Source: a virus
Virus record (IMG/VR): IMGVR_UViG_3300025728_000371
Coordinates: 3,560 to 67,559 of that record
Direction: 5' to 3' (one strand)
DNA: 64,000 nucleotides
The position numbers and the translations under genes are program-made. The notes under the pieces were generated by a model. The model saw nothing but the letters and a program-made list of their open reading frames with translations. It was not told the origin of the DNA and made no database searches. Below, in pieces: positions 1 through 35,392 of the stretch; position 1 is the first letter of the stretch; each line of letters starts with the position of its first letter.

Positions 1-267
1 GAGACTGTTATCATTCACCTGAACGATGGCTCATCCATTCGTGGGCTTGCAAAATTTAAGATCAAAAAGGTTGTACACGTAGAGGATATCGGTGGAAAAA
101 ATCCTAATCGTGATGAACTGATGCACAAAATGGTGCTCTATTTAGAGGAGTTATGCACTCCTGGAAGTGATGGTAAAAGGATTTTAGACGAATCTGGAGC
201 GCTGGCAGACAATGAAATATTTATACCTAATTCCAGAAGAAGTAAAAAACGCGAAGCTGGTAAGTGA
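1..267 (+). CDS. Partial AT-rich hypothetical protein (C-terminal 88 aa), prophage cargo
   Basis: Frame 1 open from base 1 (ETVIIHLNDG...KKREAGK) to TGA at 265-267; overlaps next gene. Confidence 0.7.
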   Translation, partial: ETVIIHLNDGSSIRGLAKFKIKKVVHVEDIGGKNPNRDELMHKMVLYLEELCTPGSDGKRILDESGALADNEIFIPNSRRSKKREAGK

Positions 268-826
268 AGAGCTTGGCGAAGTTGCGCGAACAGGGTCGAG
301 TAATGCTGCATATCTCTGCTGGAATCTTTTTGTTTTAGCGGTCGGCTGGTTGCTTGGTTTCTTGGGGGCGCAATATGTTGATGATAATCTTCTCAATGCT
401 GTGATAGCGTTTGATGGGGTCGTTATTGGTTTTGTGATAACGGCAATGCTTTTCTCGGGGCGGAGTCAATATTTGACTCGCATGAGCTATGAACAGACTT
501 TGCTGTATGCGCACAAAACAAAGTATATGTTGATGTCTCAGATAAATACCTTGTTTTCTTTCTTGATGTGCTTGTTGTTTTGTGTTCTTACTATGGTTTC
601 TATTAAAAGTGGTTTTTTACATAGAGGGGCTTTGGTTGTTTTGTCAGCGGGGTTCTTCATGTTGGGGTGTTATCGTATTCTACTGCTGCCGTTTCAGATC
701 TATGAGGTTCATTCTTTTGCCCTTGATAATTTGGTTGCAGACTCCGAGGGGGAGTCTGTACGGAATGTGAAAAATAAAACAGAGGAAAGGTTGCGCTTGT
801 TAAAGGGTGATTTGAAGGCTCGTTAA
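212..826 (+). CDS. AT-rich membrane protein (~4 TM), prophage cargo
   Basis: 204 aa ORF with four hydrophobic segments; converges on integrase; start uncertain. Confidence 0.75.
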   Translation: MKYLYLIPEEVKNAKLVSEELGEVARTGSSNAAYLCWNLFVLAVGWLLGFLGAQYVDDNLLNAVIAFDGVVIGFVITAMLFSGRSQYLTRMSYEQTLLYAHKTKYMLMSQINTLFSFLMCLLFCVLTMVSIKSGFLHRGALVVLSAGFFMLGCYRILLLPFQIYEVHSFALDNLVADSEGESVRNVKNKTEERLRLLKGDLKAR

Positions 827-2070
827 GCGGTTTTTTCCTGAGATAGGTTTGACCAAATACGTTGTAGCTCTGTTGGTGATTCGTCATCCATCCACTTAGC
901 ATAGACTTCCACCAGCATGGTGAAGTCCTTATGTCCCATCTGTTTCGCGATGAAAGCGAGGTTGCCACGTGCAGTTAGGCACCAGCATGCATAGGTATGC
1001 CTGGTCTGGTAAGGTCGACGTGGCCTTATCTCTGACCTACGCTGCAGCGCCGCCCACTTGGTGTTCCAGGCTGATGGTACGAACCACTGGTTGATCACCT
1101 TCTTTCGTGCCTGAGTAGCTGGCGAAAGGAGCGGTGTGACCGTTTCGAGGCGGCTCTCATGGCGATTTTGAAAGACATTGATCTCCATTGGTGGTGTGCC
1201 TTTAACTAGTTCGATTAGTACTTGGCAGGCCTCAACGGCAGGCGGCATCAGCAGTACGGTTCGTGGTTTTCCAGTTTTGGGTAGTTTAAATGTGCCGCGG
1301 GCGGTAATGGCCCTGGTGATCTTGATTTGCCCTAAGCCGAGATCAATATCCTCTACGGCTAGGGCGCACAGTTCGCCGGGACGCAAGCCGGTATATACGG
1401 CCAGAGTTACTGCGGCTGAATCCTGAGCGTGTAGACATCCCTTATGTACGAGCTGGTTGAATTCCGCTTTGGTCAGTGGGTCGGGCTCGCGATCCTGCAT
1501 GGAAAAGCGACTGCACGCGAGGGCTAGTCCTTCCCGTGAGTACTTGTTGCTTTCGCACCAGTTCAAGAATCCGGCGAAAGTGGCGAGGTAATGATTAGTA
1601 GTCGAAGGAGCCCTGTCTGCAATCAGCAGCGTCCTTAGCAGTTGGATATCTTCTGGCAGCAGGGTGCTCACCAGCCGGTCCTTGCCTATCAGATCCGCGC
1701 AGATATCAAGCGCGTAGCCGTACTTTTCCTCGGTCATCGGTGTGATATCAACGGCTTTTAGTGGCTTGTACCGGTCAATGAGCGTGTGAAGGCGTTCGTC
1801 TCTGGCGGTGCTGACGTTGGTAGCGTTTTTTGAGTTTGGGAAGTGTCGGCTGTAATCGAAGTGTCCAGTTTTAATCTCATGAGTAATTGCTGCCCTGAGC
1901 AGGGCGGCATGTTTGATATTGGCTTTTGTGAGAGGAAGCCCCAGGGATTCGCGGCAGCGGACTCGGCGCCAGATGAACCAGATACGCAGGTTGCCGCCGT
2001 GAACTTCGACCCCTTTGTGCTTCGCCAGCTCTGCCTCTAGGCTGCTTCCTGGGGTGCGCTTTCGGCCCAC
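823..2070 (-). CDS. int: Tyrosine integrase with N-terminal arm-binding domain
   Basis: TGLRPGEL, YQTRHTYA, MGH and catalytic Y (VEVYAKW) motifs; N-terminal LRIWF..RCRESLGL arm domain. Confidence 0.95.
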   Translation of the reverse strand: MGRKRTPGSSLEAELAKHKGVEVHGGNLRIWFIWRRVRCRESLGLPLTKANIKHAALLRAAITHEIKTGHFDYSRHFPNSKNATNVSTARDERLHTLIDRYKPLKAVDITPMTEEKYGYALDICADLIGKDRLVSTLLPEDIQLLRTLLIADRAPSTTNHYLATFAGFLNWCESNKYSREGLALACSRFSMQDREPDPLTKAEFNQLVHKGCLHAQDSAAVTLAVYTGLRPGELCALAVEDIDLGLGQIKITRAITARGTFKLPKTGKPRTVLLMPPAVEACQVLIELVKGTPPMEINVFQNRHESRLETVTPLLSPATQARKKVINQWFVPSAWNTKWAALQRRSEIRPRRPYQTRHTYACWCLTARGNLAFIAKQMGHKDFTMLVEVYAKWMDDESPTELQRIWSNLSQEKTA

Positions 2071-2941: not shown

Positions 2942-3751
2942 TTATGCCAGGGTGAAGTTGCCCACGGTCAGGGTTGCTTTTTCGCCGACCTGAATCTGGA
3001 CGACCGATTTGAACTCCTGGGCCAGGTCTTCGCGCAGCTGCGCTTCACCAATCCAGCGCAGTCGCAGCATTGGTTTGTCGCCGCCGGTCAGCACGGCCAC
3101 GCGCAGTTGAATCACGCGCTCAGCAAGGCCCTCGAAAGGTCGAACCTTGAACAGAAAGTCGCTCGGCAGACCTTCCGAGGACTTGGCCTCGATCCGGTCC
3201 ATCGCTGATTTCGACTGGCTCAGGTCGCTGACGGTGTGTTCGCTGTTGCGGGCCTGTTCGATAGTGATCGAGCGGATGGCGCCGGCGGCCTTGCGAAGGT
3301 CGATTGGCTCCCCGTCCGCGGCGATGGCCGTCAGGTTCGGGGCCCAGTCCTCGATCCAGTCGCTGAGATCCTTCTGGGCCAGTGCCCGGCTGGCCGCGTA
3401 CTCGAGGGCCACGAACGCGGCGGTCTTCGCCAGGGTGAGGGTGGCGGTGAAGTCGCCATGACCTGGCTCTGCCTCGGTACCGAGGTTGAAGTAGATCTTG
3501 CAGGACATGGCCTCACCGTCGACGAAGCCGACGATGTTCGCGCTGACCTGGGTGGTGACGTAGGTAGTGAAGTCAGGCAGCGAATGCGTGGTCATCGCAC
3601 CGCGGAAGCGGCAGCGGTTCAACTGGTATTGCTCGATGCTCTGGACCTTGACGCCCGCTGGCAGGGCGACAGTGGGGATATGGGTCGCCAGCGACTTGGC
3701 GGCTGCGATGATGGCTGTGTCTTGAATCAACTGTACGGCTTGGGCTTCCAT
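2942..3751 (-). CDS. DUF2303/YfdQ-family phage protein
   Basis: RFRG.MTT.SL.DF, QKDLSDWIEDW and PFEGL motifs. Confidence 0.8.
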   Translation of the reverse strand: MEAQAVQLIQDTAIIAAAKSLATHIPTVALPAGVKVQSIEQYQLNRCRFRGAMTTHSLPDFTTYVTTQVSANIVGFVDGEAMSCKIYFNLGTEAEPGHGDFTATLTLAKTAAFVALEYAASRALAQKDLSDWIEDWAPNLTAIAADGEPIDLRKAAGAIRSITIEQARNSEHTVSDLSQSKSAMDRIEAKSSEGLPSDFLFKVRPFEGLAERVIQLRVAVLTGGDKPMLRLRWIGEAQLREDLAQEFKSVVQIQVGEKATLTVGNFTLA

Positions 3752-6343: not shown

Positions 6344-6994
6344 CTAGTTTTGAAGTTGACTTGGTGGGCTGATGCCGCCGACGTAGTGGATCGACTCGAT
6401 CTCGGCGCGCGTTACGGTGAGTCGGCTATAAGTATCGTTCACGGCCATCAGGCTGACCTCTTCATCGTTCTCGTACAACAGCTCTTTGACCATCTTGGTC
6501 CCGTCGGTAAGCGTGACCAGCACGTACTCTCCTGGCACCAGGTCATGCCTTGGCTCGCACCAGATGATCCAGCCGTTGCGAATGGCTGGTGCAAGGGCAT
6601 TGCCCTTGATGCGTACGGAATAAACCGTAGGGTCTGAGGTTGGAGCATCCACCCAGCCAGTCCCGGCCGCCAGTTCATCCCATGTTCCATCTTGACTCAA
6701 TTGGGCCACTCCTTGAAGGGGAGCCCGCCGGAATGGATTCATGGGTATGGGGCCGGGTTCGATGCCTGGCGCCACCCCGTCCTGGGCTAAGCGCGCGGGC
6801 ATTAACAGTGTTCCGCCAGTAAGGCCGATCTTATCTTCAAGTTTCTTCGCTGCTCTGTCGCCCAATGGTCTATGGCCGTTCAGTAGCTGCGAAAGGTAGG
6901 AGGGGTCAATGTTGTAGCGATCGGCAAACTCCTTGGATTTGAGGTTGCCGATCAGGGCCCGGAGGGTATCAATGCGGAGCTGGTTGATGTTCAT
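6344..6994 (-). CDS. cI: CI-like repressor (HTH + S24 autopeptidase)
   Basis: HTH (FADRYNIDPSYLSQLLNG) and S24-like C-terminus (IKGNAL, VKEL); divergent from cro. Confidence 0.88.
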   Translation of the reverse strand: MNINQLRIDTLRALIGNLKSKEFADRYNIDPSYLSQLLNGHRPLGDRAAKKLEDKIGLTGGTLLMPARLAQDGVAPGIEPGPIPMNPFRRAPLQGVAQLSQDGTWDELAAGTGWVDAPTSDPTVYSVRIKGNALAPAIRNGWIIWCEPRHDLVPGEYVLVTLTDGTKMVKELLYENDEEVSLMAVNDTYSRLTVTRAEIESIHYVGGISPPSQLQN

Positions 6995-7013
6995 CCGTGA
7001 ATCTTGAAAGGCA

Positions 7014-7070
7014 GTTAGCATTTTGTAAATTACGGTTTGCTATTGTTAAATGCGTTAGCGGTTGCTATAT
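7014..7070 (+). promoter_or_regulatory. Rightward operator/promoter (OR)
   Basis: TAGCGGTTGCTA 7056-7067 plus degenerate copies between cI and cro. Confidence 0.65.
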
Positions 7071-7521: not shown

Positions 7522-8010
7522 ATGAGTCGACAAGACTTGCTGCCGGGCGCTGGCCCGGTTCTTTCATTGCGCGAAGCGCTCTACCGTGCGGGTCGCGATT
7601 ACCGCGGTGGTATCACTGCCCTCGGCCATGCCATGAGCATGGACTATGACGAACTCCAGAAGAAGCTGATGCTGCGTGAAGAGCGGCGGTGGCTGAATCC
7701 CGACGAACTCGAAGAGTTCATAAGCCTGACCGACAGCCCTGCGGTCCTCGACGCCTTGATGCGTCCGGCTGGGGCTGTTTGGTACAAGCCAACGCCAGTG
7801 CCGGCCACGGGGCAGGCGCTGCAAGCGGTCGGCAAGTTGCTTGAGGAGACCGGTGAATTCGTTTCCAGCATGCACGACGGCGCTGCCGACAACATCTGGG
7901 AGCCTCACGAAGTTGCGACACTCGAAAAGCACGGCCTCGACGTGATCCGCGCTGTACTCGGCATTATGGCCGGGGCGCGGGCAGCGATGGAGGACCAGGC
8001 AAATGGTTGA
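7522..8010 (+). CDS. Phage regulatory CII-family protein
   Basis: GGITAL...LQKKL......LNPDEL pattern; position after cro. Confidence 0.7.
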   Translation: MSRQDLLPGAGPVLSLREALYRAGRDYRGGITALGHAMSMDYDELQKKLMLREERRWLNPDELEEFISLTDSPAVLDALMRPAGAVWYKPTPVPATGQALQAVGKLLEETGEFVSSMHDGAADNIWEPHEVATLEKHGLDVIRAVLGIMAGARAAMEDQANG

Positions 8011-34277: not shown

Positions 34278-34288
34278 GGGCGGATGCT

Positions 34289-34340
34289 TGGGGCAAAAAT
34301 GGGGCATTTCGGGCGCCAGACTATGCCAATCAATGCCAAG
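34289..34340. repeat. Putative integrase arm-type and Xis-type repeats (TGGGGCA x2, TGCCAA x2)
   Basis: TGGGGCA at 34289 and 34300; TGCCAA at 34324 and 34334, about 100 bp inside the junction. Confidence 0.5.
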
Positions 34341-34362
34341 TAGCTTGCCTGTCGCAGTTATC

Positions 34363-34408
34363 GAAAAAGCCCTACACCCCCTGTATTACGGGGGTGTAGG
34401 GCTTTTTC
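34363..34408. terminator. Perfect 19-bp inverted repeat, bidirectional terminator
   Basis: gaaaaagccctacaccccc-tgtattac-gggggtgtagggctttttc. Confidence 0.85.
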
Positions 34409-34414
34409 TCGTTA

Positions 34415-34468
34415 CTACTCAAACACAATCGGGGTGTGCGAGGACAGATCGGAGATTGGCTTATTCAT
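34415..34468 (-). pseudogene. mutS: 5' stub of mutS cut by prophage integration (att junction ~34428)
   Basis: Minus strand reads MNKPISDLSSHTP-IVFE**; Pseudomonas MutS begins ...SDLSSHTPMMQQY; expected position divergent from prtR. Confidence 0.85.
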
Positions 34469-34657
34469 CAGTGGGATAGGCGATAGCTTGAAAAGGGTGG
34501 GGGCAAAATGGGGGTTATTTGCCTGGCAATGGGCGCAAGGTTAACACGGGCGGTCCGGCTCCGTAGACATGGCCTTTTGCTGTTGCTGTAATGGATATGC
34601 ACTAAATATGCAAATTAGCATTTGCCATTCAGCCAAAGCCCCATCAATATGCGCATT

Positions 34658-35392
34658 ATGCAAATACGCAACGTTTCTACCGTCCTCCGAGCACTGCTCG
34701 ACCGCCACGGGATCTCCCCCACGGAGCTTCACCGGCGCACCGGCGTGCCCCAATCCACCTTGTCGCGGATACTCAGCGGGAAGATCGTCGACCCTTCGGA
34801 CAAACACATCTCGAAGATCGCCGAGTATTTCCAGGTCAGTACCGACCAGCTGCGCGGCCGTGCCGATATCGGTGCCGCCCGTGACCAGGAACAGGGCCCG
34901 CTGCACTCTGAACTCAAGGATATAAGCCTGTGGGACGACGACACCCCCGTCAATGACGACGAGGTGTCCGTGCCCTTTCTTCGCGAGGTTGAATTGGCTG
35001 CTGGATCAGGAAGATTCGTCATCGAGGAAAGCGAGAAGGCCAGCCTGCGCTTCGGCAAGCGCAGCCTGCGTCACAACGGCGTGCAGTTCGACCAGGCCAA
35101 GTGCGTGACAGTGCGTGGCAACAGCATGTTGCCGGTGCTGCGTGATGGCGCCACGGTCGGGGTCAACGCCGGCAAGAGTGCCATTGGCGACATCGTCGAT
35201 GGCGATCTCTACGCGATCAACCATAACGGCCAACTGCGGGTGAAGCAGCTCTATCGTCTGCCGACCGGTATTCGCCTGCGCAGCTTCAATCGCGACGAGC
35301 ACCCGGATGAAGACTACAGCTTCCAGGAAATCCAGGAAGAGCAGATCACCATCCTCGGCCACGTCTTCTGGTGGGGCATGTACGCCCGTTAA
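34658..35392 (+). CDS. prtR: PrtR-like repressor (HTH + S24)
   Basis: HTH (TELHRRTGVPQSTLSRIL), AAGSG cleavage site, GNSM, VKQL; leads the tailocin locus. Confidence 0.9.
   Translation: MQIRNVSTVLRALLDRHGISPTELHRRTGVPQSTLSRILSGKIVDPSDKHISKIAEYFQVSTDQLRGRADIGAARDQEQGPLHSELKDISLWDDDTPVNDDEVSVPFLREVELAAGSGRFVIEESEKASLRFGKRSLRHNGVQFDQAKCVTVRGNSMLPVLRDGATVGVNAGKSAIGDIVDGDLYAINHNGQLRVKQLYRLPTGIRLRSFNRDEHPDEDYSFQEIQEEQITILGHVFWWGMYAR

Follow-up and report, generated by a model that had tools for sequence, protein, structure and literature searches.

A temperate Pseudomonas phage that probably integrates within the 5′ coding end of mutS and supplies the gene with a new start

Mobile elements lodged in the mismatch-repair gene mutS have been described by Chu et al. 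(2017, mBio; PMC5296598), whose account of Vibrio splendidus 12B01 centres on a 27-kb element inserted at the codons of the MutS motif HTPMMQQ. This element provides mutS with a new start and a new promoter, and its excision leaves a 2-bp deletion. According to the same account, hundreds of Beta- and Gammaproteobacteria carry such mutS elements—some of them prophages—and excision was found by PCR to be scarless in E. coli 536, B. multivorans CF2, and P. putida F1. Chu et al. suggest that mutS passes from one regulatory region to another upon excision.

A comparable arrangement is that of the Rac prophage of E. coli K-12, which lies in the 5′ coding end of ttcA between imperfect att copies (Liu et al. 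2015, Sci Rep; PMC4632033). The N-terminal residues of the gene product are reported to differ between lysogen and cured strain, and the orphaned start is a pseudogene. Active lysogeny offers further elements at repair or regulatory genes for which the state of excision could matter, as it could for the element considered here, namely SpyCIM1 (Streptococcus pyogenes, at mutL) and phi10403S (Listeria, in comK); both are described as silencing the gene or operon while integrated. In Pseudomonas, Mavrodi et al. (2009, PMC2647930) and, for P. putida BW11M1, Ghequire et al. (2015, PMC4684702) report a prophage that adjoins a tailocin cluster, 'between mutS and cinA'. The passages of these two papers that deal with the locus call the site intergenic and make no mention of an att site inside mutS or of a gene start brought in by the phage.

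The locus analysed here comes from a 67,559-base IMG/VR provirus record (G000:C1), of which positions 3560–67559 make up the window, that is, the whole 64,000-nucleotide stretch of DNA under analysis; coordinates refer to the window unless marked G000:C1 or L001. The features at the right end of the prophage, together with their counterpart at the left end, are the following:

34415–34468, minus strand: orphaned resident mutS start (stub), running from the ATG through 13 mutS codons and four phage-encoded codons to the first stop; a second stop occupies 34412–34414.
34428–34482, minus strand: attR copy of a 55-bp imperfect repeat, made up of 16 nt of leader and 13 codons.
G000:C1 2540–2594 (L001 1829–1883), outside the window: attL copy of the 55-bp repeat, at the live mutS start, identified by pairwise comparison of the ends.
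34428–34444, minus strand: likely crossover core, TCCTCGCACACCCCGAT, 17 bp identical in attL and attR, covering codons S-S-H-T-P-M.

Read on the minus strand from 34468, the stub opens with ATG AAT AAG CCA ATC TCC GAT CTG TCC TCG, continues in the mutS frame (NKPISDLSSHTP) as far as CAC ACC CCG AT, and there loses that frame, proceeding as T GTG TTT GAG TAG TAA. Its translation is MNKPISDLSSHTP followed by IVFE and two stops, a stub of 17 codons and exactly what the original prediction, made from the letters of the window, had claimed. At the other end of the element, the live mutS start shares with the stub a direct repeat that is identical at 50 of 55 positions (E 3e-18 for the pair in a blastn of the two element ends), which shows that the stub is real and is the displaced mutS start, not a chance match. 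The degenerate codon pattern for D-L-S-x-H-T-P-M occurs once in the 64-kb window, against 0.17 occurrences expected in shuffles. Both repeat copies end in CAC ACC CCG AT (H-T-P-M), which puts the insertion point within the HTPMMQQ codons; the stub and its repeat at the live gene thus bear out the predicted insertion of a prophage in mutS at this motif. A search for the repeat to the left of the window had been proposed as a check and, once run, it located the second copy precisely where the real mutS starts. All five differences between attL and attR fall in the 5′ part of the repeat, and its last 17 bp are free of mismatches. To judge by this pattern, the 17-bp identical stretch is likely to be the crossover core, and it occupies the same position in all seven of the other genomes compared.

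Beyond the left edge of the window, on the strand of the stub and about 35.4 kb from it, a Pfam MutS_I match (E 1.8e-46) marks the body of mutS. The two repeat copies are 35,447 bp apart, in agreement with the claim that the mutS body would lie more than 34 kb to the left, parted from its resident upstream region. Read downward from G000:C1 2580, mutS extends over 859 stop-free codons, beginning MNKQISDLSSHTPMMQQ (MNKQISDLSSHTPMMQQYW); its first 13 codons and the 16 bases upstream of them are phage DNA, and a single residue (P4Q) differs between the live start and the stub. The start codon supplied by the element thereby keeps mutS in one open frame. Mismatch repair had been expected to depend on a phage-supplied 5′ end or on excision; of these two, the former is borne out. 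An intact mutS unrelated to the left prophage end had been named as an argument against insertion, and what was found is a gene that is intact but joined to that very end. The leader of this phage also holds an in-frame ATG ATG 27 nt before the conserved start (G000:C1 2581–2607; L001 1870–1896, minus strand), a feature absent from most of its relatives. A MutS with nine extra residues (MMKKTPNPL) would therefore be possible, which makes the true start codon ambiguous.

Between the two ends of the element lie the following features of the prophage:

1–34427: part of the prophage covered by the window; the element begins at G000:C1 2557, which is 1003 bases beyond the left edge.
823–2070, minus strand, as mutS: tyrosine integrase (Arm-DNA-bind_2, E 2.6e-22; Phage_integrase, E 4.4e-17).
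6344–7021, minus strand: CI-like prophage repressor (HTH_3 and Peptidase_S24).
212–826, plus strand: low-GC cargo ORF of 204 aa, between integrase and attL.
G000:C1 2801–3826 (L001 2090–3115), plus strand: second low-GC cargo ORF, of 341 aa.

The integrase has the layout of the lambda Int type, with an N-terminal arm-binding domain (PF12167, residues 19–81) and a C-terminal catalytic domain (PF00589, residues 203–392). The prophage further encodes a DUF2303 protein, a dNMP kinase, and a primase. Packaging and virion assembly are represented by a large terminase, a portal, a major head protein, a tail sheath, and a tail fibre, and lysis by a spanin. In keeping with this gene content, matches at the DNA level (72%–77% identity) extend to parts of four Pseudomonas phage records and cover structural and early genes only. 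As part of the explanation set out below, and with the same high degree of confidence, the element can be regarded as a complete-looking 35.4-kb temperate myovirus of fluorescens-group Pseudomonas. The integrase stop and the mutS ATG are separated by about 1.8 kb holding the two cargo ORFs, neither of which has a match in Pfam, PHROG, or PADLOC, and the GC content of this patch between integrase and attL is 0.43. In about half of the related loci, the same position holds 1.2–4 kb of variable DNA, as is typical of accessory (moron) genes.

Two further features lie immediately inside the right end of the phage:

34363–34408: perfect hairpin of 19 bp with an A run on one side and a T run on the other, 20 nt inward of the right end of the phage; predicted two-way intrinsic terminator.
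34288–34345, minus strand: P′ arm with two GGCAT repeats followed by TGCCCCATTTTTGCCCCA, candidate integrase arm sites; exact motif match at 34289–34306.

The hairpin has a folding energy of −39.6 kcal/mol (z −8.0, with 0 of 200 shuffles equally good), was also picked up by a terminator scan, and has a similar counterpart in 6 of 11 other right ends compared. Given this predicted fold, it should halt transcripts arriving from the resident mutS upstream region as well as the late transcripts of the phage. The P′ arm motif lies 122–124 nt past the core in this element and in all 11 others (four attP and seven attR), with a partner motif in the P arm 85–87 nt before the core (here at G000:C1 2610–2633); motif pairs thus flank the core at about −87 and +123, on both arms of attP. 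Among 90 unique left arms, GCCCCA-N4-TGCCCCA is shared some 30–50 nt before the ATG, as are CTAAG at 7–11 nt before the ATG, a start region whose DNA sequence is strongly conserved, and the HTPM codons. The GCCCCA-N4-TGCCCCA pairs of the two arms would be arm-type binding sites for the integrase.

The explanation that best accounts for this architecture, and that we regard as highly probable, is site-specific integration by a phage that carries an imitation of the mutS start and so keeps the gene whole. On this account, the 35.4-kb temperate myovirus has entered the 5′ coding end of mutS, with crossover in the codons for the invariant H-T-P-M residues. Its attP, situated beside the integrase, carries the mimic—a weak Shine–Dalgarno-like CTAAG, an ATG, and 13 codons—so that integration restores a full-length mutS whose first 13 codons and entire upstream region are phage-derived. 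The original start stays behind as the 17-codon stub, with a strong phage terminator directly after it. MutS would then presumably be made at an adequate level from a phage-borne promoter, although none was located: ahead of the rebuilt gene, a sigma-70 scan of 220 bp found no promoter on the mutS strand, and the best promoter scores in the 90 unique P arms were no better than those of shuffles. One candidate, GTGACA-16-CACAAT, lies across the arm motif in locus L025 only.

The same arrangement recurs widely. Named species genomes of Pseudomonas, Stutzerimonas, Ectopseudomonas, Metapseudomonas, and Azorhizophilus yielded 38 loci with a relative of the integrase (65%–81% identity); mutS lies downstream on the same strand in 37 of these (the contig ends at the remaining one), aligning end to end in 35 and being cut by the sequence end in two. 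Among 17 further loci, mutS aligned end to end in 16. Even where decay has reduced the element to 5 kb or to integrase fragments, the adjoining mutS is full length, which suggests that expression from a phage-type leader suffices for the gene to be maintained by selection. In 17 of the 37 loci, no more than about 60 nt separate the integrase stop from the mutS ATG; in the others, 1.2–4 kb of variable cargo lies between them. An orphaned second mutS start was present 4.8–48.7 kb upstream of the live start in all seven other genomes tested, a range of distances that forms a series from full prophages down to small remnants. In three of those seven, the orphaned host start comprises only nine codons (M-T/S-DLSAHTP) and its leader is unrelated, such that lysogeny adds four residues to MutS.

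With respect to frequency, 20 of 401 evenly sampled Pseudomonadaceae genomes contain the integrase (E<=1e-80) and mutS adjoins it in 19 of the 20, which corresponds roughly to 5% of the sampled Pseudomonadaceae species genomes. A class-wide sample of 400 genomes (one of them unscored) yielded one further case at E<=1e-60, its MutS being 66% identical. Metagenomic data add 76 IMG/VR contigs with the integrase: 54 represent attL with mutS, 16 end or have no core within the sequence covered, two diverge 12 nt further into mutS, and four represent attP. Of the four attP records, three are classed as carrying direct terminal repeats and rated 100% complete, at 36.5–39 kb and with no MutS_I domain; the mutS start therefore belongs to the free phage genome. 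Among isolated phages (a collection of 50,697 records), no integrase is more than 44% identical, which leaves prophages and metagenomic phage genomes as the only known members of the family; the closest relatives in phages include IntR-type integrases, at 34% identity. One IMG/VR contig (L241) carries an integrase relative of 67% identity with no recognisable mutS core within 5 kb downstream, and may be an exception or hold a larger cargo.

The choice of target can be set against the variation of MutS itself. In the 95 genomes that could be parsed out of 100, the tail ahead of HTPMMQQ varies from 6 to 31 codons, and the motif is present in all 95. By replacing the variable N-terminal tail and using the conserved motif as core, one integrase family would be usable in many genera without inactivating mismatch repair. 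The length of the N terminus was also considered as a signature of the phage and was rejected, as 13-codon tails are widespread and an alignment with E. coli MutS shows a 12-residue tail.

Insertion at mutS also occurs in a second register. In contigs L242 (about 7696–7920) and L250 (about 536–760), the phage-supplied start continues through MMQQ and diverges only after ...CAGTA, and the DNA past the divergence holds inverted repeats of the GTCTAAAA/TTTTAGAC type. The site in L242 lies downstream of an element of the present family, and two different elements thus appear to be stacked in one mutS. E. coli 536 (L253 23158 and 37974) recombines at a similar place, after ATGATGCA.

The present prophage belongs to a kind already described by Chu et al., whose elements include that of P. 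putida F1. Its resemblance to them extends to insertion at HTPMMQQ, an orphaned host start upstream, a new start and upstream region with mutS in frame, an integrase beside mutS, the prophage nature of some members, and sizes of a few kb to tens of kb; excision of the published elements is reported as precise outside 12B01 (PMC5296598). The original prediction drew an analogy with Vibrio mutS, and the same paper already reports such an element, with precise excision, in P. putida F1. In the detail of the crossover the systems differ: recombination here takes place at ...CCGAT, before the two Met codons, whereas E. coli 536 recombines some 6–11 nt further in. The integrase fragment of 536 (DUF4102 type, on the opposite strand) has no detectable similarity to the integrase described here, and common descent of all mutS elements is accordingly not established; on these comparisons, more than one integrase lineage probably uses the HTPMMQQ motif, as the text of Chu et al. 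allows. The island of E. coli 536 (L253 22846–37946) spans 14.8 kb between the orphaned and live mutS starts. Copies of IS630, IS21/IS100, and IS3 are present there, along with genes for a reverse transcriptase and a hypothetical protein of 1283 aa, and the only integrase is the 250-aa DUF4102 fragment; its excision was still detected by PCR (PMC5296598).

As described, the screen of Chu et al. took an integrase within 300 bp of mutS, a distance found in 17 of the 37 related loci but exceeded here (about 1.8 kb), such that the cargo genes would have caused this copy to be missed. Relative to Rac (PMC4632033), with which the present prophage shares the position in a 5′ coding end, imperfect att copies, altered N-terminal residues, and a pseudogene left at the old start, the target gene is a different one, Rac is defective, and four residues change in Rac as against one here. 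Unlike SpyCIM1 and phi10403S, which are described as silencing their targets while integrated, this element rebuilds mutS, whose reading frame is open in the integrated state. Full-text literature searches turned up no paper besides that of Chu et al. that names the HTPMMQQ motif, and this Pseudomonas site appears in none among the matches listed.

On the far side of the stub, the order of genes agrees with that in the Pseudomonas loci of PMC2647930 and PMC4684702, namely mutS, prophage, repressor gene, and tail-only cluster:

34469–34621, minus strand: resident mutS upstream region, now feeding only the stub.
34622–35392, plus strand: PrtR-like LexA-type repressor (Peptidase_S24, HTH_3), divergent from the stub and heading a tail-only cluster that runs to the end of the window.

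This tailocin-like cluster encodes Baseplate_J, PhageMin_Tail (tape measure), Phage_sheath_1, and Collar proteins and a weak Rz match, and has no head genes. A homologue of the PrtR-like repressor, 91% identical, stands beside mutS in genome G066. The predicted position of the mutS start, divergently upstream of prtR at a tailocin locus, is consequently correct: the stub adjoins a PrtR-like repressor and a tail-only cluster. Under the single label 'provirus', the IMG/VR record combines mutS, a complete prophage, and a distinct tail-only cluster (34622–64000) that has its own S24 repressor and lysis genes; the record ends inside those lysis genes.

Upstream of the stub there is no sigma-70 consensus, yet the resident leader has a phage-like character: its last 52 nt before the stub ATG score 35.9 bits in register against a matrix of the phage left arms, where the maximum of 950 shuffles is −4.7. 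The leaders of at least three sampled integrase-free genomes—G021, G066 (in which the PrtR-like gene is next door), and G081—likewise score above every shuffle. One possible, though rather doubtful, reading is that the start of Pseudomonas mutS has been overwritten repeatedly by phages, with earlier integrations becoming fixed after deletion of the prophage. The motif pair is also found in purely phage DNA on the right arm, which makes it likelier that such host leaders are relics of integration than that the phage copied a host leader. A fossil right end has no counterpart in the window, where 34.6–64 kb contains neither a second stub nor a P′ motif, nor is one found around the mutS gene of five genomes whose leader is phage-type or related to that type; with no matching right-end relic, the idea stays hypothetical and any link between the tailocin cluster and the attachment site speculative. 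Genomes with short-tail MutS (9–11 codons) share a conserved GGATACCGTACACTAGCGCC-like block about 20–45 nt before the ATG; the block bears no relation to the phage-type leader and is a candidate for the native mutS promoter region (loci L082, L087, L089, L091, L106, L109, L110, and L123, from G051, G049, G018, G030, G027, G020, G075, and G039, respectively).

Whether the replacement of the leader affects the host bears on a second reading, which adds to the explanation above and does not exclude it. Under this reading, the mutS frame is intact in either state, while phage-borne control shifts the level of MutS, and with it the mutation rate, according to lysogeny or induction. Such an effect is conceivable, if on balance unlikely. 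The resident upstream region is 35 kb away and sealed by the terminator, and the conserved pair of arm sites, 30–50 nt ahead of the ATG, occupies the expected place of a promoter; moreover, the 17 loci in which the mutS ATG follows the integrase stop by no more than about 60 nt leave no room for a terminator (none was found in L025), and mutS there would be co-transcribed with int. The same idea is raised in the discussion of Chu et al. (PMC5296598). The change in expression may nonetheless be small, as the resident leader at this locus already resembles that of the phage, and the persistence of intact mutS beside long-decayed elements indicates that a phage-type leader is apparently sufficient.

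Sequencing runs offer a view of the unoccupied site. In runs X3 (DNA) and X4 (an RNA library), of other organisms, contigs follow mutS to L001 1883 and then continue into the resident upstream sequence of the stub, carrying stub bases at two of the five positions at which attL and attR differ; these contigs represent the empty site in near-identical strains. The MutS of G021 begins with the same 13 residues as the stub. Run X1, which shares 0.96 of sampled words and may be the source, contains a contig of 11,365 nt in which mutS and phage DNA are joined across attL with even depth, plus one contig of the empty form that may come from another strain. A loose end at L001 1899 in X1 was considered as an attP junction and rejected, being the P′/P arm repeat aligning to itself.

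The prophage would, by our reading, still be able to excise. The opposing view, that it is grounded (defective) and that the replacement of the gene start is fixed rather than reversible, appears improbable. It draws on the decayed versions that are known (elements of 10.7, 5.7, and 4.8 kb and integrase fragments beside mutS) and on the contigs of the sequencing runs, none of which shows this copy excised. The element itself argues otherwise, as frames are open for integrase, repressor, replication, packaging, head, tail, and lysis genes, both arms have intact motifs, and its size is comparable to that of the free phage genomes (36.5–39 kb).

Far less credible is the mutator switch put forward in the original prediction, in which mutS would be silent or truncated in the lysogen, or frameshifted on excision as in V. 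splendidus 12B01. The 2-bp deletion reported there (PMC5296598) is a precedent, and the scans did find no promoter for the rebuilt gene. The frame is nevertheless open over all 859 codons here and intact in 35 of 38 and 16 of 17 related loci, that is, in every related locus with enough sequence. Imprecise excision, from which hypermutators had been expected to arise, fits poorly with a 17-bp identical core that predicts in-frame products in both directions; the empty-site contigs of related strains are in frame, and the excision reported for P. putida F1, E. coli 536, and B. multivorans is scarless (PMC5296598). Finally, a metagenome mis-assembly that joined stub and mutS body to phage DNA can be set aside, as the metagenomic origin of the provirus record and a mutS depth in X1 indicative of a strain mixture are outweighed by the independent 11,365-nt contig spanning attL at even depth and by the same architecture in dozens of isolate genomes, complete chromosomes included.

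The principle of such integration and its occurrence in Pseudomonas have been published (PMC5296598). What is added here is the anatomy of attP, with its core, its terminator, and the motif pairs of its arms; the presence of the mutS mimic in free phage genomes; and a rough frequency, along with a correction, in that the 'intergenic' mutS–cinA prophage site actually lies inside mutS. If host leaders are indeed fossils of earlier integrations, a pair of arm sites would sit permanently at the position of the mutS promoter, giving phage proteins a handle on the level of mismatch repair, and the attachment site would account, as a side effect, for the well-known mutS–cinA hotspot of tailocins and prophages. 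For the phage, in this environmental Pseudomonas, the arrangement makes a repair gene of essential quality available as a landing site without the cost of a mutator host, for the invariant HTPM codons are recombined and only the variable tail of MutS is replaced.
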